Part shown: positions 47,271 through 57,750 of the stretch, one piece after another
Numbering within the stretch: the stretch's first letter is position 1
Layout: the number at the start of each line of letters is the position of its first letter
NCBI RefSeq assembly: GCF_013315695.1
Contig: NZ_CP054353.1
Source: Escherichia coli
Lineage (GTDB): Bacteria; Pseudomonadota; Gammaproteobacteria; Enterobacterales; Enterobacteriaceae
Reading direction: 5' to 3' (one strand)
DNA: 64,000 bases
Program-made: the position numbers and the translations under genes
Notes under the pieces: generated by a model
The model's database searches: none
What the model was told of the DNA's origin: nothing
Seen by the model: the letters and a program-made list of their open reading frames with translations, nothing else

Positions 47271-47355
47271 GCCGAAGTGGCGAAATCGGTAGACGCAGTT
47301 GATTCAAAATCAACCGTAGAAATACGTGCCGGTTCGAGTCCGGCCTTCGGCACCA
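47271..47355 (+). tRNA. leuX: tRNA-Leu (anticodon CAA), 85 nt with long variable arm
   Basis: Sequence gccgaagtggcgaaatcggtagacgcagttgattCAAaatcaaccgtagaaatacgtgccggttcgagtccggccttcggcacca. Confidence 0.95.
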
Positions 47356-47889
47356 TCTACATTTTCCTCTTGAAAAACAAGCGATTAAGTAAATTATTTT
47401 ACCTTTTTTGCCTATCTAATCTTCACTGATTCTTTCCCGTATAAAAGCCACTGTGATTGTTAATGGCTTTGGTATGTTAGCACGCAGTGGCAAGTAGTTA
47501 CCAGGCTCAACCTTGTACTGCATACGCCAGTATGCCCCCCTTTGAAGCAGGAAGACGCGCCGCCGTCTCTAAACCTATGCCAAGCACTTTTAACCGTTCC
47601 ACACTTAGTTCGGCGTTCCGTTCAAGCCTGTCGTGGTGACTTACCACGAATAAACAAGCAAATTCGCGGTATGGTATTCGTTACGAGAGCGGTTAACTGA
47701 CAAGACTCCTGTGATACGCCTAAGGTGCTTAAATTGATGCGTCCAACATGGCACAAAAGGCGGTCTATCGTTTAATTTTGCTCCATACATCAACTGGCAT
47801 TGCCAGCTGTATGGGGCTTGGTCTGCTGGTTCCGATGAACGGATTAAATTGCTAAGATGCAGACCATAAGCCATAAGGCGGAGATAAGT

Positions 47890-49098
47890 ATGAAATCTGT
47901 AGAACTATTTGCCGGTGCTGGTGGCTTGGCTATGGGTTGCGAAATTGCTGGTTTTGAGCATCTTGCAGTCGTTGAATGGGATAAATGGGCCTGTGATACC
48001 GTTAGAGAGAACAAAAAGAATGGCTTTCCGCTGTTGTCTGATTGGGATCTTTTTGAGGGTGATGTAAGAGAATTTGATTGGTCGAAAATCCCTAAAGGGA
48101 TTGACCTTCTTGCGGGAGGGCCACCTTGCCAGCCATTTTCAATCGGTGGTAAGCACAAGGCTAATTCTGATTCGCGGGACATGTTTCCAGCGACAGCAGA
48201 AGCGATCAGGCAAATTCGCCCTAAGGCTTTCATCGTCGAGAATGTGAAAGGCTTAACACGGGCAACCTTTGCGAGCTATTTCCAGTACATCCAGTTACAG
48301 CTTGAGTTTCCAGAAGTAGCCCCGCGAAATGGCGAAGACTGGAGCGAGCATTTAAAACGCTTGCAGGAAGAAAAAACCAGTGGAAAGAACAAAGGGAGAG
48401 GGCTGACGTATAACGTTCTGGCTACGTTAGTCAATGCAGCAGACTACGGCATCCCACAAAAACGTGAGCGTGTCTTCATTGTTGGCTTCCGCGATGATCT
48501 TGAAATTGAGTGGTCGTTCCCTAAACCGACACACAGTTATGATGCACTCGTTTATGATCAGTGGGTTACTGGTGATTACTGGAAACGACATGGTTTAGAA
48601 ATGCCAACTGTTCCAAGCCAGATGGTTAACCGTATCGCAAAATTGCGTAAAAATCCTCCCGATACACTTCCGTGGAAAACTGTTCGAGATGCAATCGCGG
48701 ATTTGCCAGATCCTGAAACAAAGGCGGCAAAGATGATCCGGAATCATGCGTTCCAGGCGGGGGCACGAACTTATCCCGGTCATACCGGAAGCCCCTTAGA
48801 TCTGCCAGCTAAAACGCTCAAAGCAGGTGCTCATGGCGTTCCTGGGGGCGAGAACATGCTTGTTCGTGATGATGGCTCAGTACGCTATTTTACTGTGCGA
48901 GAAAGTGCCAGAATTCAAACATTTCCCGATAGTTATCGTTTTCACGGGAGTTGGACTGAAACTATGAGGCAGTTAGGTAACGCTGTGCCGGTTCATTTGG
49001 CGTATTGCGTTGCCAGCAGTGTAGCGGAAAAGCTGCTGACCTCTGAAATTGGGAACATCCTTAAGCAGGGTGGCAATTATAAAAGGGCTTCTGCATGA
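47890..49098 (+). CDS. DNA (cytosine-5)-methyltransferase, Type II R-M modification subunit (~402 aa)
   Basis: C5-MTase motifs I FAGAGG, IV PPCQPFS, VI ENV, VIII QKRERVFIVG, X GNAV; SD GGAG upstream of ATG 47890 (ORF track starts at 47857). Confidence 0.85.
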   Translation: MKSVELFAGAGGLAMGCEIAGFEHLAVVEWDKWACDTVRENKKNGFPLLSDWDLFEGDVREFDWSKIPKGIDLLAGGPPCQPFSIGGKHKANSDSRDMFPATAEAIRQIRPKAFIVENVKGLTRATFASYFQYIQLQLEFPEVAPRNGEDWSEHLKRLQEEKTSGKNKGRGLTYNVLATLVNAADYGIPQKRERVFIVGFRDDLEIEWSFPKPTHSYDALVYDQWVTGDYWKRHGLEMPTVPSQMVNRIAKLRKNPPDTLPWKTVRDAIADLPDPETKAAKMIRNHAFQAGARTYPGHTGSPLDLPAKTLKAGAHGVPGGENMLVRDDGSVRYFTVRESARIQTFPDSYRFHGSWTETMRQLGNAVPVHLAYCVASSVAEKLLTSEIGNILKQGGNYKRASA

Positions 49099-49745
49099 CA
49101 GGAAAGGTCATACCATTTAATCCACTTGATAAACAAAATTTAGGTGCCAGCGTTGCGGAAGCCTTATTGAGCAAAGATGCTCATCCTCTGGAGGAGTTAA
49201 CCTCATTTCAAGGAGCAGGGATTTACGCAATTTATTACACTGGCGATCATCCTGCTTATAGGCAACTGGCAGAACTGAATCGTGACGGGCAATTTCGATT
49301 GCCTATCTACGTGGGTAAGGCCGTCCCAGCAGGGGCGAGAATGGGGCTTACCAACCCTGATAAGGTTGGTAACGTTCTGTTTAGGCGCTTGAAAGAACAT
49401 GCAGAAAGTATTCGCGCAGCGGAAAATCTTTCGATTGAAGATTTTTATTGTCGATTTTTGGTTGTTGATGACATCTGGATCCCATTGGGAGAATCGCTGG
49501 TTATCTCTCGCTTTAAACCGATTTGGAATTCGTCTATTGATGGTTTCGGTAATCATGACCCAGGTAAGCATCGCTACACTGGTTTACGTCCTCGCTGGGA
49601 CTTTATGCACCCGGGGAGAGGATGGGCTCAAAATTTACGTGAGCGTGATGAAACTGTGGATGAACTCATTCGTGATTCTATACAGTATCTTCAGAATTTA
49701 CCGCCTTGCTTGGCTCAGAAATTTATCGAAGCTGAAGGCGATTAA
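49095..49745 (+). CDS. GIY-YIG-family restriction endonuclease, Eco29kI/Cfr42I-like (216 aa)
   Basis: GIY...YVG motif (GIYAIYYTGD...RLPIYVGKA); start overlaps the MTase stop (ATGA). Confidence 0.65.
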   Translation: MTGKVIPFNPLDKQNLGASVAEALLSKDAHPLEELTSFQGAGIYAIYYTGDHPAYRQLAELNRDGQFRLPIYVGKAVPAGARMGLTNPDKVGNVLFRRLKEHAESIRAAENLSIEDFYCRFLVVDDIWIPLGESLVISRFKPIWNSSIDGFGNHDPGKHRYTGLRPRWDFMHPGRGWAQNLRERDETVDELIRDSIQYLQNLPPCLAQKFIEAEGD

Positions 49746-49866: not shown

Positions 49867-50442
49867 TCAAATATCAGGGAGTTGCAAGAACGACTTAAGT
49901 CGGTAGAAGGTTGCTTTGCTGATCTCTAACCTATCCTGGACCGCTGCTGGTGGTAATCCTCGTGCTAATAACTCACGTACTTGTTCAACGGTTGCTTTGA
50001 TCGGTCTGCCGCAATGCTTACCTTCCGACTGAGCTCGTTTGATTCCTGCGGCTCTACGCTCTGCGATTAGGTCTTTTTCCAGGCTGGCAAGTCCTGCCAT
50101 CATAGTGAGCATGGCTTTACCCACTGGTGTTGAAAGATCAAACCCCTCTCGCAAGCTGACAACCTTCACACCCTTCATTTGCAACATTTCAACAGTAGAT
50201 AGTACATCGATAGTGTTACGTCCCAAGCGGTTTATAGCAATCACGATCAGCGTATCGCCTTCTCGCACATAATTGAGTAGTTCAGCAAACCCTGGACGCT
50301 CTCCTGCCTTGATTGCACCACTCACCGCTTCATCACTAAACCAGCGAGTTACGCTATAACCAGCATCGGCTATCTGCTTCTTCTGGTTTTCAACGTTTTG
50401 ATCGCTGGTGGAAACTCGCACATATCCGATCACAGTTGTCAT
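49867..50442 (-). CDS. Serine recombinase, resolvase/invertase family (191 aa)
   Basis: N-terminal catalytic motif IGYVRVSTSDQ and C-terminal HTH. Confidence 0.85.
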   Translation of the reverse strand: MTTVIGYVRVSTSDQNVENQKKQIADAGYSVTRWFSDEAVSGAIKAGERPGFAELLNYVREGDTLIVIAINRLGRNTIDVLSTVEMLQMKGVKVVSLREGFDLSTPVGKAMLTMMAGLASLEKDLIAERRAAGIKRAQSEGKHCGRPIKATVEQVRELLARGLPPAAVQDRLEISKATFYRLKSFLQLPDI

Positions 50443-50681: not shown

Positions 50682-51033
50682 TTAGATCTCAGAACACAGG
50701 CTCAGCGTGTAGAGTGCCGTTTCACCATCGTTGTTAGTTGGGCGCATAACGAAAACTGGATCACTGCCGTTGTCGATGTAAGTAACCGCTATTCCACCGT
50801 CTGGGGTGGCGTACATCTTCGCAATACTTTTCTCTCCAATGAAACCCAGCCGCCAGGTTTTACCACCCATGCTCACTTTCATGATTTTGTCCCGCACATC
50901 GAGGCGAGTTTCGACAGACGATTTTTGGCTACCAGAATCTATCTGCCCTTCCTGAATGGCCTTACAGGTGAATGTGGTTGCACTTGAGGCGAAGGGGGGG
51001 GACGAGCAGCGCCGCGAGAATCAATTTTTTCAT
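50682..51033 (-). pseudogene. Small secreted protein gene interrupted by a G8/C8 homopolymer frameshift (possible phase-variable gene)
   Basis: ATG at 51033 encodes signal peptide MKKLILAALLV then 8 C at 50994..51001 shifts frame; 7 or 10 C would join it to the 71-aa ORF 50682..50897. Confidence 0.5.
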
Positions 51034-51213
51034 GGTCTTCCTTTTGGATACGAGTTAAGAGTTCGTCGGGAGACATTATAAAATCTTTAATTGATAAAAA
51101 CGATCAATTTCTATCGTATTGATCGATAAAATTGATCATAATTGAAACTATAAATCCTACGCTCAGTCGTTATGGATGAGGTTTTTTATAAGAGAACTCA
51201 ACGGGATGATGTT

Positions 51214-51420
51214 ATGAAAAGAGCAATGATGGTGATGTGTGGGCTACTGTTTTCACAGTTGGTAGCAGCAGGGCAGATCACAATGATCGATCCCCAGCAG
51301 GATACGACGGAGAATGGCAAGACGCTTTGCACCTACGAGAACAGCCAGTATGTTTTTACCTACGTCACTAAAGGGCAGTGCCCCTATGCAAAGACTTTCG
51401 ATACTCAGGATTCAGAGTAG
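51214..51420 (+). CDS. Small secreted cysteine-containing protein (68 aa from MKRAMM)
   Basis: Signal peptide MKRAMMVMCGLLFSQLVAAG; mature part has two Cys (TLCTY, GQCPY). Confidence 0.5.
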   Translation: MKRAMMVMCGLLFSQLVAAGQITMIDPQQDTTENGKTLCTYENSQYVFTYVTKGQCPYAKTFDTQDSE

Positions 51421-52604
51421 AGGCTGCATAAAATAGGAAGTGTTGTTTAACTTCATGAAAAGACAGGTGTGCTTAGCACAAGCCTCCAACGGATTGATTG
51501 TTAATTCTTCTGATAACGGCACAGCGCAAGGCTTTACGCAAAGAGAGTGATAGTTACTATCTTGATGACTATGGCAATTTTCCCCCTGTAACAACGGCAT
51601 TCATTACCTGCTAATTACCAGCGGATTACGCGCCAGTTTGATGGGAATTAACTCAGGGTTATTGCATGGGGTAGTGTGGAGTGAGCAGGGTGACAGTCTA
51701 CCGTTGGGTGAAGGGCTGATAGGTAATCGACGCGAAGCGCCGGAACCATACTGTTATGCGCTGGCCTTGGTGCCAGGCTCACGCCGCGCATGAAAGATAG
51801 CCATTACAGGAGAGATAATTTTTGACAAGTTACCTTCATCAAAGGTGCTTCTCCTGTATAAATGCTTGTTATGCTCGCTATGCTCCCAAACACAAACCCA
51901 TTAAACCCAACTAACTTAAGGTTAGTTAATTGGTTTTCTCTCTCTCTTGGGCTACTACCGCCCAAACTTTGCTTAATGCCATACAGCGACTACGCCGCCA
52001 TTAACAACACTCCACAATGATCCAATGGCATTCCTGCTTAATGTCATCCACCGATCTTGATTAGCCACCAACCAAACAACCACCCTAAATCTTTTAGGCT
52101 GTCTGTTTATCTGGTGCAAGGTAGCTATGACATTACCATACGTGCAAACATCCCAAGCCAATCATCACTGATTGGCTCGTGCTGATGCACTTCAGTGCAG
52201 AGAGAGAATCTCTCTACTATTATAGCGTATTTAGTAGGTCCCTGTATTTAAAGGAAAAATTAGGGTGAAAATCGCCATTGTTCACTTTTTTTCTCAAGAA
52301 ATGGCGAGATGCTGTTCGTAAATGGGAGGCATGGCTGTCTTCTCTGGTGGCAAGTTCTACCACAAATTTTGATTGACAGCAACCATCTATTTCTGGTATA
52401 AGAAGCACTAATTGCAAAGCAAAAATGCAACTAATTGAAAATGACCAAAAATATTTCATGAGATCACCGTTTGGGTATTGACAAACGTTAGTGGTCTATG
52501 GTATTCTTAATACTAAGAAGGGGAGAAAACCTTCTGAACTTTTCAGCCCTGGGCAGGGTAACTGCCTGGGGCTTTTTGCATCCAAAATCCGAAGGAGGCC
52601 ATTA

Positions 52605-52781
52605 TTGAAGTATTACAGCAGTGACCAGATTTTTAATGACCTGGTGAGCGGCGAAGTGAAACGCCACGTTATTTACGCATCTATGCAAGCAGCAAAATCG
52701 AGAGGGTATACAGACCGAATGGAAATGTTTCAATCTGCAATTATCCGTTATGACCAACACCGAAGGGAGAACACCAACTAA
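52605..52781 (+). CDS. Hypothetical small protein (58 aa, TTG start)
   Basis: Perfect SD AGGAGG 6 nt upstream of TTG 52605; stop overlaps the next gene's SD; function unknown. Confidence 0.4.
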   Translation: MKYYSSDQIFNDLVSGEVKRHVIYASMQAAKSRGYTDRMEMFQSAIIRYDQHRRENTN

Positions 52782-52790
52782 GGAGGAACA

Positions 52791-53711
52791 TTGATTCAAG
52801 CATACGAAGACGGCTATTTTTACAGAGATACCCCGCACCACGATCACTGCCCGCTTTCAGCATTTTCCAGACCATCCCAGCAATTCATCGTTATTGATAA
52901 TGTTCTGTACGTTGTCGAAGTGGAAAGTGGTGAAATTCTTCACTACGACTCGACAGAGTATTTGCTTGATGGTGGCATTGTTCAGGATCTGCATTTGAGT
53001 TACTCGACAGCAGACACCGCCAAATCAAAACAGGCTCACCGTGAATACGCTAATAAGCTGGGCGACCTTCCAGGGAATGCAGCCTATAACGGGATCAAGG
53101 AATACGCAGACGTATTAAGCAAGCCAGATTTCAAGAAAGTATTTGCATTGTGTCAGGAAGTAGATAGACGCAATGTAGTGTTTATAAAACGTGCGGATTT
53201 GAGCATAATACTGAACACCACGCCGGATCATCTCAATCGTGTATTATCTGCTCTTGAACGTAAGCACTACATCAAAGTTGATAAAGCTGAACACCAGAAA
53301 GGAGTATTAAAACTGTGGGTTAATCCTTCGTTTGTCTGGAAGGGTGATTCAGCTAACCGCTACTTATCTGGATATTTGCAGGGCTTCCCAATCTTGGAAC
53401 GTAAACGCTCCACAAAACGTTCTGACGTGCTCGACACGCTCACGGCTGCTGCAATGGTTGCCTTTGATACCTGGCACATTGAACACGGTTATAAGGCCAA
53501 TCAGCCTCATTCTAATGAATGGTATGCAGAGATCACGATGTACGAAAACGCCTACGGCGAAGGGGTGAGGCTTGCAGCAGAAAATAAGACATTGAACAAG
53601 TTATTGAACCCGGCAACATCTGAGGGGGATTTCGTTTATGAGCTATTCACTACGGCACAATACAGGGAATACCTGCAAACATTGGCAAAACAAGTAAGGA
53701 GATTACACTGA
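52791..53711 (+). CDS. Hypothetical protein (306 aa, TTG start) with possible winged-helix region
   Basis: SD AGGAGG at 52781..52786, TTG at 52791; N-terminal His/Cys cluster (HHDHCP); central helix-rich segment; no recognised catalytic motif. Confidence 0.6.
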   Translation: MIQAYEDGYFYRDTPHHDHCPLSAFSRPSQQFIVIDNVLYVVEVESGEILHYDSTEYLLDGGIVQDLHLSYSTADTAKSKQAHREYANKLGDLPGNAAYNGIKEYADVLSKPDFKKVFALCQEVDRRNVVFIKRADLSIILNTTPDHLNRVLSALERKHYIKVDKAEHQKGVLKLWVNPSFVWKGDSANRYLSGYLQGFPILERKRSTKRSDVLDTLTAAAMVAFDTWHIEHGYKANQPHSNEWYAEITMYENAYGEGVRLAAENKTLNKLLNPATSEGDFVYELFTTAQYREYLQTLAKQVRRLH

Positions 53712-53995
53712 ACCAATGTTTTGTAATAAAGAAGCCAGCACAATACTTATTTGAACTAAATTAAGCAACTCTCATACACACCGCTCTTTTGGTGAGTTAT
53801 TTATTACTATCTTTAAGGTGATGAGTGTTTATACTGTATTAAATTATTATAAATAAGGGGATGGTGTATGATTACAGCTCTTTATTGGTGTTTGTTCTTT
53901 CAGTTTGCGCTGTATTTTTTGTCTAAATTAAATTTAAATTGAAAATTAGCCCTGATCTTGAAATAGTTCAGGGCTGGAATTTCTAAAAAATAACA

Positions 53996-54955
53996 TCAGT
54001 GTGCTTTTAGTTCATCTTTAGCTAATGAGTCATAGAGTATTTTTGTGAGCGGAGACTCTAAATAATCATCACTAAGTAGTTTAATAAAATGCTTTTGGGA
54101 TTCTTTTGTTTTTACGAGCAATTGTGTGCCGTCTTCACTTACAATTAAAACTGTTGAAAGATAGGTATGCTTGCTTACATAATCGATAATTTCTGGCACA
54201 TCAATTTTCCCCAGTACAGGTGAGTGTTTGGCAATTTTGGCAAGCTTCCTTGAGAAAGAAATTTCTTTTGCACTCTTCTCAAGGTGAGTAAGATCTTCGA
54301 TAAGCAATGAAGCTTTCAATGCTTCCAAAGCCACCGTTGCTTGAGCTTCAATAACCTGATGGAACTGCATCGTTATTTCTAAAGTTTTTTGATTTTTTAT
54401 CAGGAATTCGTCGTCTATAAGAGCCAAGTCATAATTATAATCTAATCGGAACACTTGGGTTGGCAATTCTTTTAAATACCCGTCTGCGTCTGGTATCAAG
54501 TTAAACAATTTTCGGCTTTGCTCAAAAACCATGAGGTTTGTTTTGTTCTTATACAATGACAAACACTTATTGTTGCCTCTTAACTGAATTATTATCCCTT
54601 TCACGTCAGTAAATTTATTATTTAAATCATAATAATCCTGAGAGTTAGGCGGTATGGCTATTGCATTTTTTATAAAATCAAACTCTTTTGGATGTTCTTC
54701 ATAATCAAATGCAAACAAGGCATTTTTTCTATCATCAAAATTCGAAAGGAGAGGAATGGTTAAATCCTCATTTGTCACAATGTCGTCGTAAAGCCTAATT
54801 TTGAATCCTTCAACAATTTTTGGTAAAGCTTCAGCATCTATTTTAGATAATTTTAATTCATAATTATCTTCAGTTTTAACTATAAAGATAATTCTTATAC
54901 CTGAGAAATTATCGAAAATTTCGGTGATTTGATTTTTAAAATTCACAGGGGTCAT
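53996..54955 (-). CDS. Candidate Kiwa KwaB-like (DUF4868-like) defence protein (319 aa)
   Basis: AT-rich soluble ORF coupled by 1-nt TAATG overlap to the upstream 4-TM protein; assignment is by architecture only. Confidence 0.45.
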   Translation of the reverse strand: MTPVNFKNQITEIFDNFSGIRIIFIVKTEDNYELKLSKIDAEALPKIVEGFKIRLYDDIVTNEDLTIPLLSNFDDRKNALFAFDYEEHPKEFDFIKNAIAIPPNSQDYYDLNNKFTDVKGIIIQLRGNNKCLSLYKNKTNLMVFEQSRKLFNLIPDADGYLKELPTQVFRLDYNYDLALIDDEFLIKNQKTLEITMQFHQVIEAQATVALEALKASLLIEDLTHLEKSAKEISFSRKLAKIAKHSPVLGKIDVPEIIDYVSKHTYLSTVLIVSEDGTQLLVKTKESQKHFIKLLSDDYLESPLTKILYDSLAKDELKAH

Positions 54956-55542
54956 TATTTTTTCCTTGCTATGAAAACGTAGTCATCAAAAAAACTATAG
55001 AATACTTGATCGTCAACAGTCAGCACATCCATCGAGATTGCAATGACGTTTTTTACTTCACCACTTCCTGCATGAGAAATGTTAACTCTATACAACTTAT
55101 AACCGAAAAGCGCCAAAGTAGGATTCGCATAATACTTATCCGTTTTAATGAAAATTAAACCAATAACTACTATTAAGAGAAAGTACGCAATGTTTTTCTG
55201 AGGGTCATCAAAACTGAATCCCATAAAAGGTACTATGTAAGTTGCTAAGAAAGTCAAACTTTCATAGCTCTCACTTTGGCAAGCAGTGATTGTTACACAG
55301 TCAGCATTGTTGACCTTCGTCAATCCTTTAAACCTTCTATAGAAATAAAATGCTATTCCTATAAAAATTAAACAAATTATTGAGATTATGTTGCTGGAAG
55401 CTAATTGATAAAAACCTATAAAATGGCAGGAAGAGCCATAACAAAATGGGATTTTTGCGCTCAAAATGATAATAAAAACAAACAGCAACATTAAAGACAG
55501 TATGTATAGTCCCATCTTGTTGAATGTGCTTTTTCGTTTCAT
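54955..55542 (-). CDS. Candidate Kiwa KwaA-like membrane protein (~195 aa, four predicted TM helices)
   Basis: Four hydrophobic segments; start taken at MKRKSTF with GGGGGA SD (ORF track starts 10 codons upstream). Confidence 0.45.
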   Translation of the reverse strand: MKRKSTFNKMGLYILSLMLLFVFIIILSAKIPFCYGSSCHFIGFYQLASSNIISIICLIFIGIAFYFYRRFKGLTKVNNADCVTITACQSESYESLTFLATYIVPFMGFSFDDPQKNIAYFLLIVVIGLIFIKTDKYYANPTLALFGYKLYRVNISHAGSGEVKNVIAISMDVLTVDDQVFYSFFDDYVFIARKK

Positions 55543-55826
55543 GTTATCCCCCAGTGATGAAATCATAATCAAAACTTGATCATGTGAACATCAAAAGCAT
55601 ACCTTAAAGCACTGGTTTTTTGTACAGCAATCGGCAAATTCATGCGTACTATCGAACTTACAAGAGGACGCATAGTAGATTTTCTGATCCAAATTGCCAT
55701 CATGTACTTTTAATTCATGTAGAGTAGCCAATGAAGTATCAGCAATTACATGATTTTATTGTCTATTTTTTATGTTTTTTTGTAAAACACCAGAAGATTG
55801 AAAAGGGCCAATGAGGCCCCTTGGCG

Positions 55827-56309: not shown

Positions 56310-57587
56310 CTATTTATCAGTTTTCTCACGTTGGGGCTCCGTCTCTATCTCTGGGTAACGTAATAGCTCGATGTATGGCTGTAGTTCAATCGGAGATGCT
56401 GCATTCTTGCTGTACGTCTTGAAACTTTCTGTAGAGCCGCGCTCATGACCCAAGAGAAGTGCGATCCGGTCTTCTGTAACTGGTTTTAACTTACCTCGTC
56501 CAACCCCCCCACGATCCAGAATCTGCGCCACTGCATGGCGTAGACTGTGAAAAACTTTCAACTCTGATCCTACTTCCCCCAATGCCTTACGTTTAGCCCT
56601 CGTAAAACGCTGTGAATGCCACGTAGAGCGCTTTCCATCTGCGCGGTCAGCTATCGACGCACGATAGAATAAAAAGCCGTTATGGGGCTTCTCACGCAGC
56701 GACAAAACCAACGGAGTGATCAGGCTATGCACCGGAATAATACGGGCTGCTGATTTGGTCTTCCCCTCCGTCACTTCGAAACATAACACCCCTTCAATCT
56801 CTCGGATGTTGGCTGCACGTAATGAACAAATTTCATTCAGGCGCATACCGCTATACATCCCGATCAGCGTTACATTTTGCATCTCTTCATCATTCGCCAT
56901 CACAGCGAACACCTTCGCCAATTCTCCAGGCTCAAATACTTCATAACTCACCTTGCTACTTTTGGCCTCCAGCGCATGACCGCGCCAGATGTTTTCTTGC
57001 GGTGCATCGTGGTAGCGATTACGGGCCAGATCCCAGATTTGAGCCAGTGCGCTGACATAGTTTTGTATGGTCTGTGGTGCTTTCTCCGTCTTGAGCTGAT
57101 CAAGCCAGCCTGTAACGGTGGTTCGGTTAACGTCACGAAGCTGAACATCACGCTTTTTCAGATGTTCTAAGAGCACTTCAACAGCCTTGTTTGTCTTCGA
57201 TAGCGTAGTGAGTTTGCGCTTCTCGCTGAACTGCAATAGATAAAGATCACGCATTTTCAGGAGGGATGGCACTCCTTGGGATTGGGTATTGCTCATGACA
57301 TGCTGAACAGGTGTTTCATGAACTCGGGCGCTAACTCTGCGTAGCTCTGCAATTGCCTGCTCAATCTTACTCCCTTCTCTTGGTTTGACCTGTTCCCGTA
57401 AACGTATCCATTCAACAGCGATAGCATCTCTGAACAATCGCGCCTGACGTATGTCACTTGTGCCAGTGCTCTTGACGAAGTAGCGCTTGTTGCCAAAAAG
57501 CGAGCGCATGTAAGCTGGAACGGTAATCCTTACCAGATAGTTTCCGCATGGATCTAAAACTAAGTAACGATCTCTCTTGAAACTCAT
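56310..57587 (-). CDS. Tyrosine site-specific recombinase (island integrase), ~425 aa
   Basis: C-terminal catalytic region with conserved R...HxxR...Y (SLRHAVAQ ... ESFKTYSK); adjacent to island att repeat. Confidence 0.85.
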   Translation of the reverse strand: MSFKRDRYLVLDPCGNYLVRITVPAYMRSLFGNKRYFVKSTGTSDIRQARLFRDAIAVEWIRLREQVKPREGSKIEQAIAELRRVSARVHETPVQHVMSNTQSQGVPSLLKMRDLYLLQFSEKRKLTTLSKTNKAVEVLLEHLKKRDVQLRDVNRTTVTGWLDQLKTEKAPQTIQNYVSALAQIWDLARNRYHDAPQENIWRGHALEAKSSKVSYEVFEPGELAKVFAVMANDEEMQNVTLIGMYSGMRLNEICSLRAANIREIEGVLCFEVTEGKTKSAARIIPVHSLITPLVLSLREKPHNGFLFYRASIADRADGKRSTWHSQRFTRAKRKALGEVGSELKVFHSLRHAVAQILDRGGVGRGKLKPVTEDRIALLLGHERGSTESFKTYSKNAASPIELQPYIELLRYPEIETEPQREKTDK

Positions 57588-57707
57588 GTTCACCCCGGCT
57601 ATTTTGTAAGGGCTTTTACATGGGGAAGTTTCCTGTGTAGATTGTTGGAGCGGCGAATTATTAGCAGTTGATTCAATAGCTTAGATCAGCTTGCTGGACA
57701 AGCGAAC

Positions 57708-57750
57708 ACCGTAGAAATACGTGCCGGTTCGAGCCCGGCCTTCGGCACCA
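57708..57750 (+). repeat. Direct repeat of leuX 3' end (island attR), 43 bp with one mismatch
   Basis: accgtagaaatacgtgccggttcgagCccggccttcggcacca versus tRNA 47313..47355 (T in the tRNA). Confidence 0.9.

Follow-up and report, generated by a model that had tools for sequence, protein, structure and literature searches.

Here we report a comparative analysis of a two-gene operon in a 64,000-nucleotide stretch of Escherichia coli DNA (assembly GCF_013315695.1, contig NZ_CP054353.1), referred to over its whole length as the window, which represents the chromosomal leuX locus. The operon encodes proteins of 58 and 306 amino acids (aa) and lies beside the Kiwa defense genes within a small integrative island. 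We propose, with a probability of roughly 45%, that it serves a satellite-like element as a replication-initiation module whose expression is tightly throttled. From its distribution among genomes, the gene pair is the apparent conserved backbone of rare small (about 10-13 kb) integrative, partly satellite-like elements. With the same degree of confidence we regard a replication module as the most economical reading of the features that come together in it, namely a large protein with a Rep-like predicted fold, a small partner, a conserved cis element, and a co-inherited recombinase and often a resolvase.

In the proposed mechanism, the 306-aa winged-helix protein would be a replication initiator or origin-binding organizer, a very distant structural relative of the RepL-domain Rep proteins. 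Once the element is excised, the protein would act at a cis site that lies within the module or beside it, for which a structured non-coding element ahead of the promoter is the foremost candidate. The 58-aa three-helix protein would serve as the partner of the initiator or as an autoregulator. Expression would be throttled at three levels: most transcripts would stop at a terminator in the leader, both genes would be translated from TTG starts, and the small gene would have to be translated for the large one to be. Synthesis of the initiator would thus be low, or confined to times when a signal, possibly from a helper phage, permits read-through.

Two TTG-initiated genes and their junction

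The initial annotation of this region, made from the sequence alone, described two consecutive open reading frames (ORFs) starting with TTG, each behind a perfect AGGAGG Shine-Dalgarno (SD) sequence, with the stop codon of the first overlapping the SD of the second. These coordinates were confirmed (Table 1), and so was the suggestion of a genuine, uncharacterized operon, since both ORFs are under purifying selection and neither matches a known family. Both TTG starts are unchanged in every enterobacterial island variant, as are the AGGAGG sites, except that the first SD reads AGGAAG in the Buttiauxella copy L023. The N-terminal residues align with homologues that start with ATG or GTG, which argues that the TTG starts are correct. 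In RefSeq (PGAP), the same 306-aa coding sequence (CDS) is annotated in identical copies of the region, and the 58-aa CDS is annotated in a diverged copy.

Patterns of substitution show that both genes are real and under purifying selection. For the large gene, the ratio of nonsynonymous to synonymous substitution rates (dN/dS) is 0.24-0.31 at synonymous divergence (dS) of up to 0.45, and the third of the gene that encodes the winged helix is the most constrained (0.15 among island alleles). Changes in the small ORF within the enterobacterial islands are too few, so its selection was judged between distant lineages: dN/dS is 0.21 at a dS of 0.76 between loci L003 and L005, and L018 and L024 differ by six synonymous and no nonsynonymous changes. 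The small protein is more conserved than the large one (78% versus 48% identity between L003 and L005), and all lineages with a large protein of 37% identity or more have a homologous small ORF that lies 9-15 nt before the large gene. A BLASTP comparison of the 58-aa protein with the small protein of L005 gave no match; their homology was reached via the intermediate L018 (E 8e-6), by alignment, and via the mosaic locus L026. The small protein is basic and helical, and its AlphaFold2 model consists of three helices with a predicted local distance difference test score (pLDDT) of 94.

The 1-nt overlap between the stop codon of the small gene and the second SD forms what is, from its arrangement, a predicted translational coupling junction. 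The junction sequence AACTAAGGAGGAACATTG is identical in L026, although the small ORF of L026 is of a different type. All of the closer lineages have the gene pair and this junction.

Conservation of the gene pair in elements with variable cargo

The family of the 306-aa protein is extremely rare, with 13 matches among 1.84 billion representative proteins, one of which (P0007, a eukaryote-like repeat protein) looks spurious; of about 100,000 species-representative genomes, 3 contain a member. Relatives at 78-99% identity are found in many Enterobacteriaceae, for the most part within an island of the same layout whose flanks differ. Other members reside in distinct elements. At 78% identity (L026/L027, with L027 from Enterobacter kobei), the module stands at the head of an element that lacks Kiwa and carries Phage_cap_E, Dit-like, and 619-aa genes; at 83% (L029), it accompanies a resolvase and a different integrase, again without Kiwa. 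The 54% identical members (L018/L024) belong to an element of about 13 kb with integrase, capsid, tail-fibre/Dit-like, and tape-measure-like genes, and those at 37-40% identity (L003, L005) to integrase-bearing elements, of which L005 also encodes a resolvase and a DUF5906 protein. Among the remote members, L021 adjoins Gabija genes and a large serine recombinase, and L030 adjoins two reverse transcriptases, a resolvase, and an integrase.

In an all-against-all comparison of five elements, the large protein was shared by all five, the small protein by four (all except the remote L021), and the small resolvase by three, whereas the integrases differed. The pair co-occurs with a recombinase in each complete element examined, regardless of cargo. 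As the cargo varies while the pair stays, we consider the pair a backbone module rather than a part of Kiwa. The small serine recombinase of the island is a second backbone gene, common to L005 and L021 (37-40% identity to their resolvases).

An 82-aa protein encoded in the island (51172-51420, plus strand) has a signal-peptide-like N-terminus, belongs to PHROG 4641 (function unknown), and shows 52% identity to a protein of the capsid-bearing relative L018 (7283-7522), where its gene has the opposite orientation relative to the operon. By this similarity, its gene is a putative third backbone gene. Two decayed remnants were also observed in one and the same chromosomal neighborhood: L019 (154-2521) retains a 5'-truncated copy of the 306-aa gene beside an intact kwaBA, without an integrase and next to a GntR-aminotransferase gene, and L028 (116-1036) retains an intact copy of the 306-aa gene without Kiwa. 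The island thus appears to erode in place, with different pieces left behind.

Predicted fold of the large protein

The 306-aa protein comprises a poorly modeled N-terminal region that carries the conserved (E/D)xGEI motif of the family (here ETGEI), a central winged helix at about residues 100-185 with the motif VNPSFVWKG at its end, and a C-terminal helical domain. RepL proteins may have a motif resembling NP-x-F-x-W-K-G. The initial annotation had pointed to an N-terminal His/Cys cluster; the residues HHDHC are indeed there, although the cysteine is replaced by arginine or deleted in close relatives, and this lack of conservation makes a metal site unlikely.

An AlphaFold2 model, built on an alignment of 23 sequences, was compared with two structure libraries. 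In AFDB50, Foldseek matches after the family's own member were mostly RepL-domain plasmid replication proteins (E 2.4e-9 to 1e-7; 17-23% identity over about 200-280 aligned columns), and further neighbors included Bartonella RepA and plasmidome proteins. In BFVD, the named matches at E <= 1e-3 were RepL, a replication initiator, the Replication initiator A family, and a replisome organizer. The weak PHROG matches of remote family members pointed in the same direction, to families of DnaD-like loaders and of replication initiation. Homology to a plasmid or phage replication protein, which the initial annotation had held would speak against an uncharacterized operon, is thus found at the level of the predicted fold (RepL-domain) and not by sequence models.

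PHROGs, NCBIfam, and PADLOC returned nothing significant for either protein, and a profile search of a set of 5.8 billion proteins for RepL-labeled proteins returned only the family itself. Kinship with the RepL protein of phage P1 was considered and rejected: P1 RepL belongs to a separate Pfam family (PF26868), and hhalign gave a probability of 0.35% against it. Because the fold matches and the sequence models do not, we describe the large protein as structurally closest to RepL-type initiators, and not as a RepL.

Structured non-coding element upstream of the operon

In every lineage, 0.8-2.3 kb of gene-free DNA precedes the small ORF. Nucleotide-conserved patches within this stretch are shared by otherwise unalignable lineages and align as a module of about 190 nt, found in four lineages with 37-54% identity among their large proteins. 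The RNAalifold consensus consists of an outer helix (52119-52129 paired with 52221-52232) around hairpin A (52186-52199) and hairpin B (52199-52215); 3' of the outer helix follow an AT/A-rich linker and hairpin C, an inverted repeat TCGCCA-N24-TGGCGA (52272-52307). Paired cells amount to 93.8%, compared with 87.1% in shuffles (0 of 500 as high), for six sequences and with the structure derived from the same alignment. Compensatory pairs number 7 against 2.5 expected in this small sample of six sequences, and slid controls gave 37-57% paired cells. The stem of hairpin B is wholly different in three lineages, and G-U pairs favor the plus strand.

The most conserved word of the element is the 19-mer box GTGCAAGGTAGCTATGACA at its 5' edge. 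The box is single-copy in the window, where 0.01 copies are expected by chance, and 19 of 25 loci have one exact copy of it in the same orientation, whereas the copies in L029 and L026 carry one to three mismatches. The box is likely a protein-binding site. The element as a whole is a candidate for the origin of the module or for a regulatory RNA.

Rfam contains no match to the element. Its matches in the DNA around relatives were TPP riboswitches and a Trp leader in host DNA flanking the elements (L005 1124-1220 and 14257-14352; L018 2633-2728), which are ordinary host features. 'TGAACA' words were tried as iterons and discarded, their count being within the chance range.

Promoter and leader terminator

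The TTGACA -35 box with a weaker -10 box that had been noticed upstream of the small gene proved to be the top sigma-70 match of the region (10 of 12 positions). Promoter-like sites are not in excess there, with 5 seen versus 6.8 +/- 2.5 expected, and it is conservation that supports this promoter: the -35 box is invariant across alleles, and the segment that spans the -10 box and the transcription start was rewritten on two occasions and is still promoter-like (TACTAT, TAAGAT). The predicted transcript starts at about 52514. An in-frame extension of the small ORF to 96 aa from GTG 52491 was rejected because transcription probably begins downstream of this GTG and because L009 has an indel of 2 nt that breaks the frame.

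Both leader hairpins of the initial annotation are present, and the second is far stronger than had been described, with a 12-bp stem that contains eight G-C pairs and is followed by TTTTT. The 101-nt leader folds with -35.9 kcal/mol (z = -2.85), and none of 200 shuffles is as stable. Hairpin 1, which lies at the very start of the predicted transcript, belongs to the minimum-free-energy fold, and L009 and L010 carry three compensatory pairs in it (GAAGG/CCTTC to GGTAG/CTACC) with the loop kept. The intrinsic terminator is placed after the -10 box, which ends at 52507, and before the first SD at 52593, so that in this lineage a strong promoter leads directly into a terminator. Its sole change among enterobacterial island variants is one A-U to G-U. 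The structured leader with its terminator agrees with the earlier suggestion that it could attenuate transcription, and the terminator probably acts as an attenuator.

The 54% identical lineage (L018/L024) has a promoter, a 5' hairpin, and a terminator that are non-homologous to those of the island and follow the same order, with the terminator at the same position, and L026, L003, and L005 have good promoters and no leader terminator. The attenuator would thus be a recurrent but lineage-specific layer of control. No conserved alternative antiterminator pairing was found in the leader, and candidates for a countertranscript promoter on the minus strand reach 8 of 12 positions at best. Sequestration of the SD by the 3' arm of hairpin 1 was also considered and rejected, because the CCUUC:GAAGG complementarity is lost in L009.

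Two repeats were observed in this region. The loop and stem of hairpin 1 (52517-52533, GAAGGGGAGAAAACC) recur as GAAGGGAGAACACC at 52762-52778 on the plus strand, in the terminal part of the small ORF and immediately ahead of the second ribosome-binding site (RBS); both copies are kept in variants, and they could be a shared contact site for a protein or the ribosome. Farther upstream, at 52407-52441 (plus strand), the direct repeat ACTAATTGCAAA / ACTAATTGAAAA, with copies 23 nt apart, surrounds a TTGCA...TGCAA palindrome in an AT-rich stretch 40-70 nt upstream of the -35 box. This repeat, conserved only in part in L009, is a possible operator or UP-like element.

Table 1. Features of the operon and of the surrounding island, in window coordinates
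Feature	Coordinates	Strand	Description
attL	47313-47355	+	3' part of tRNA-Leu(CAA); left island border
C5 methyltransferase and Eco29kI-family endonuclease	47857-49745		restriction-modification (R-M) cargo
Small serine recombinase	49867-50442	-	resolvase/invertase type; PHROG DNA invertase, E 2e-57
19-mer box	52114-52132	+	GTGCAAGGTAGCTATGACA; GTGCAAGGTA(G/T)CTATGACA
Structured non-coding element	52119-52307	+	about 170-360 nt upstream of the promoter
Predicted sigma-70-type promoter	52478-52507	+	TTGACA-18 nt-TATTCT, extended -10 TG; -35 at 52478-52483
Leader hairpin 1	52516-52535	+	6-bp stem AGAAGG/CCTTCT, loop GGAGAAAA
Intrinsic leader terminator (predicted)	52545-52578	+	stem 52545-52573, loop GGTAA; terminator scan and fold
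SD of small gene	52593-52598	+	AGGAGG, 6 nt before TTG
Small gene	52605-52781	+	TTG start, 58 aa; TAA stop 52779-52781
SD of large gene	52781-52786	+	AGGAGG; first base is the last A of the small-gene TAA; 4 nt before TTG 52791
Large gene	52791-53711	+	TTG start, 306 aa; central winged helix
Kiwa cargo	53996-55572	-	kwaB 53996-54955, kwaA 54955-55572; convergent with the operon
Tyrosine integrase	56310-57593	-	DUF6538 + Phage_integrase; NCBIfam tyrosine-recombinase matches, RefSeq annotation, Pfam matches on orthologues
attR	57708-57750	+	partial repeat of the tRNA-Leu 3' end, 43 nt (repeat search); right border

Weighing of the replication module against alternative functions

A number of results weigh against a role of the operon in replication. 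The only significant Pfam and PDB sequence matches of the 306-aa protein are helix-turn-helix (HTH) domains of the Crp and MarR types, namely the generic HTH model HTH_Crp_2 (E 1.8e-4, residues 129-163) and the MarR protein 3nrv (E 0.005, 41 residues), and a winged helix is common to initiators and regulators alike. The structural model has a mean pLDDT of 67 and is confident for residues of about 70-200 only, and its TM-scores are low (0.3-0.6). The Pfam RepL model (PF05732) has no match to the 306-aa protein at E <= 10; when 23 family members were scanned with it, one reached E = 0.016 and none E <= 0.001, and profile comparison with the family alignment of P1 RepL gave a probability of 0.2%. 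No iterons were found, k-mer enrichment in the gene and both flanks being within dinucleotide shuffles, and searches with the DnaA-box and IHF consensus found no sites. The island carries no helicase or primase gene. Searches with tblastn, using the 306-aa protein and a remote member, found no family member on plasmid or phage records, and none was found in IMG/VR viral contigs. There is also no sign of an episomal form: island-sized contigs of 10.4 kb from other samples, among them the read sets DRR294255 and ERR1415650, have the att repeat at both ends, as is equally expected from assembly breaks at a repeat.

The absence of DnaA and IHF boxes is not decisive, since the replication driven by P1 RepL needs an AT-rich region and is little affected when the DnaA and IHF sites are mutated (PMC9948254). 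The low expression of the initiator proposed here fits the possible toxicity of excess RepL in P1 (PMC9948254). The behavior proposed for the module also fits that of SGI1, an integrative island that has an oriV and a rep gene induced by its helper and that replicates transiently (PMC7433901).

The strongest contender is a master transcriptional regulator of the element, which would control the rightward gene block or excision, with the 58-aa protein as co-regulator and the upstream element as operators or regulatory RNA. We consider this somewhat unlikely, and keep it as a live rival. It was among the functions named in the initial annotation, and it draws on the same HTH matches, on the lack of iterons, helicase, and primase, and on an hhalign probability of 15% against an approximate MarR sequence, compared with 0.2-0.35% for P1 RepL. 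The capsid-bearing relatives carry the pair as the first unit of a long co-directional block, the usual place of an early regulator, and two direct repeats of ACTAATTG located 40-70 nt upstream of the -35 box could be operators. However, the top structural neighbors in two independent libraries are replication proteins and not named regulators, and the MarR and Crp matches span only the HTH of about 40 residues, with a high root-mean-square deviation, the dimerization and effector domains being absent. The MarR family is defined by a match to its hidden Markov model together with a winged helix between N- and C-terminal dimerization helices, a combination that the 306-aa protein does not show; nor does it resemble the Crp/FNR family, as no domain binding cyclic nucleoside monophosphates was detected and its HTH is central, not C-terminal. 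A regulator should also co-vary with its regulon, yet the genes downstream swap completely while the pair and the cis element persist.

Control of excision and integration is quite improbable. The pair would then encode a recombination directionality factor (RDF) and an accessory protein for the integrase, in line with the constant company of a site-specific recombinase and with a small, basic, helical protein within the known size range of RDFs. RDFs co-evolve with the recombinase and its att sites, whereas here the recombinase family varies (DUF6538-type tyrosine, other tyrosine, and large serine recombinases) while the pair and the upstream element are constant, and the conserved cis element is inside the island and not at att.

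Two further functions, both of which take up suggestions of the initial annotation, found hardly any credence. An extra defense component or a dedicated regulator of Kiwa would fit the position of the operon immediately beside the convergent kwaBA, the sole strongly diverged patch between island alleles, which takes in kwaB as well as the 3' part of the 306-aa gene, and the decayed L019, which keeps its truncated gene beside kwaBA; but one recombination tract can explain the shared patch, PADLOC gave no match, Kiwa is complete as KwaA and KwaB alone whereas the present family is extremely rare, and relatives of 78-83% identity lack Kiwa or, farther away, accompany unrelated cargo. A toxin-antitoxin-like addiction module that stabilizes the island would suit the compact two-gene layout, the overlap of stop and RBS, and the tightly limited expression, but neither protein falls into any toxin-antitoxin, PADLOC, Pfam, NCBIfam, or PHROG toxin or antitoxin family, the large one is built around a DNA-binding winged helix with replication-protein neighbors, and the pair travels with a conserved cis non-coding element several hundred nucleotides upstream, unneeded by an autonomous cassette of this kind.

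Organization of the island at leuX

The sole tRNA gene of the window is that of tRNA-Leu(CAA) (47271-47355), and the att repeats at its 3' end and at the right border delimit a 10.4-kb island enclosing the operon. The island shows the features of a tRNA-gene integrative element, with a recombinase, flanking repeats of the tRNA 3' end, and occurrence in several genera with different flanks. Its gene order is C5 methyltransferase, Eco29kI endonuclease, resolvase, small hypothetical genes, the operon, kwaB, kwaA, an 86-aa gene, and the integrase. The Kiwa calls exceed the NCBIfam cut-offs for both proteins (KwaB 245 bits, KwaA 192 bits), with PADLOC E-values of 1e-116 and 2e-79, respectively; in this system KwaA is a membrane protein and KwaB a DUF4868 protein. 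Literature searches on the DUF6538 integrase domain and on Kiwa with leuX returned nothing relevant, and no paper on the island was found.

Among 5,426 complete E. coli genomes, eight match the region, six of them across at least 80% of the query. Carriers of the island include the strains EcPF7 and NCTC9080. A diverged island allele shows 87.7% identity across the query, with the differences concentrated at 52800-55000. When the window is compared with L002, the alleles are 95-100% identical except for a patch formed by the 3' two-thirds of the 306-aa gene (76-90%) and kwaB (68-76%), which stops near the kwaB/kwaA boundary. The patch looks like one recombination tract or the outcome of diversifying selection centered on KwaB.

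Several other features of the island and its surroundings were observed. A 116-aa hypothetical gene (50682-51033, minus strand) is frameshifted here and intact in other island copies, and RefSeq calls the identical copy a pseudogene. The AT-rich DNA that separates the 306-aa gene from kwaB holds a hydrophobic mini-ORF of 24 aa, MITALYWCLFFQFALYFLSKLNLN (53868-53942, plus strand), which lies behind an AAGGGGA RBS and is followed by a bidirectional terminator-like hairpin at about 53950-53977. In the diverged allele, it reads MIIALYWYLFFSFALYFISK, with many nucleotide changes and its character kept; RefSeq copies leave it unannotated. The mini-ORF may be a gene for a small membrane peptide or a type-I-toxin-like gene. 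Directly after attR, from 57913 on the plus strand, lies a second integrase of the P4 type, which suggests that insertion of the 10.4-kb island placed it in tandem with an older island at leuX. This P4-type integrase has an internal stop in the RefSeq copy of identical sequence, and debris of IS3, IS66, IS110, and IS21 follows it there.

Comparison with known systems

The operon is of a known kind, the replication or regulatory core of a small integrative element with defense cargo, and its novelty lies in the proteins, the structured element, and the attenuated TTG-TTG architecture. In the predicted models, its nearest fold is that of the RepL-domain proteins (PF05732) of small Firmicute plasmids, also found in Pseudomonas and in plasmidome data, which appear to share with it a winged helix followed by a short beta-hairpin. 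The 306-aa family differs from them by its extra N-terminal ETGEI region, its C-terminal helical domain, and its obligatory small upstream partner, and it resides in integrated elements.

The lytic replicon of P1 (PkilA/P53 - kilA - repL, with oriL inside repL) is similar in being a two-gene operon under a tightly controlled promoter whose distal gene encodes the initiator, as is proposed here for the large gene. In P1, the origin is independent of DnaA and IHF sites and over-expression of the initiator may be harmful (PMC9948254). Unlike the present operon, P1 has a repressor operator and no leader terminator, and its KilA protein (266 aa) is unrelated to the 58-aa protein. By analogy, SGI1 may be regarded as the closest functional counterpart for the proposed life style: it is a cargo-bearing integrative island whose initiator gene and origin are silent when integrated and switched on after excision (PMC7433901). 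It differs in having a Rep of the RepA_C type with an iteron origin, activated by AcaCD of the helper plasmid.

Attenuation of an initiator gene has precedents among Gram-positive plasmids. In pT181 (repC), pIP501 (copR-repR), and pMV158 (copG-repB), a terminator in the leader of the rep mRNA limits initiator synthesis, and pMV158 additionally co-transcribes rep with a small regulator gene directly in front of it. These operons resemble the present one in the leader terminator and, for pMV158, in the small upstream gene, and they differ in that all use a countertranscript and in that their proteins are unrelated. Phage satellites such as phage-inducible chromosomal islands (PICI), capsid-forming PICI (cfPICI), and P4-like elements are likewise small and integrase-bearing, and relatives of the present pair occur with Phage_cap_E, Dit-like, and tape-measure-like genes, with the module heading a rightward block. 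The island in the window, in contrast, lacks structural genes; no signatures of AlpA, Pri-Rep, Psu/Delta/Sid, or the terminase small subunit were seen, and, as noted above, the IMG/VR contigs gave no member.

A wider version of the replication proposal, which we find doubtful, would make the module a previously unrecognized replicon type, in which a RepL-like initiator and its obligatory three-helix partner go together with an origin element of structured RNA or single-stranded DNA. Its carriers would form a new family, phage satellites or hitchers in Enterobacteriaceae and Vibrionaceae that swap capsid and tail genes for defense cargo (Kiwa plus R-M, Gabija, reverse transcriptases), and the leader-terminated transcript of about 65 nt would be an immunity-type small RNA that silences the element until a helper phage arrives.

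Implications

Many defense systems ride on small islands of unknown mobility, and the module described here is the one constant part of a rare family of such elements, whose members carry Kiwa plus R-M, Gabija, reverse transcriptases, or capsid genes. Its proteins are assigned to no Pfam, NCBIfam, or PHROG family, and its upstream element to no Rfam family. The analysis gives a name to proteins that are currently labeled 'MarR family' or 'helix-turn-helix domain-containing', and it calls for caution in annotation, as genes adjoining defense systems need not be defense components. If the operon is a replication module, it would add a new unclassified branch to the winged-helix initiators, and the conserved structured non-coding element would be new as well. 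The islands themselves would then be excisable, transiently replicating satellite-like elements, which would explain the spread of Kiwa among Enterobacteriaceae.

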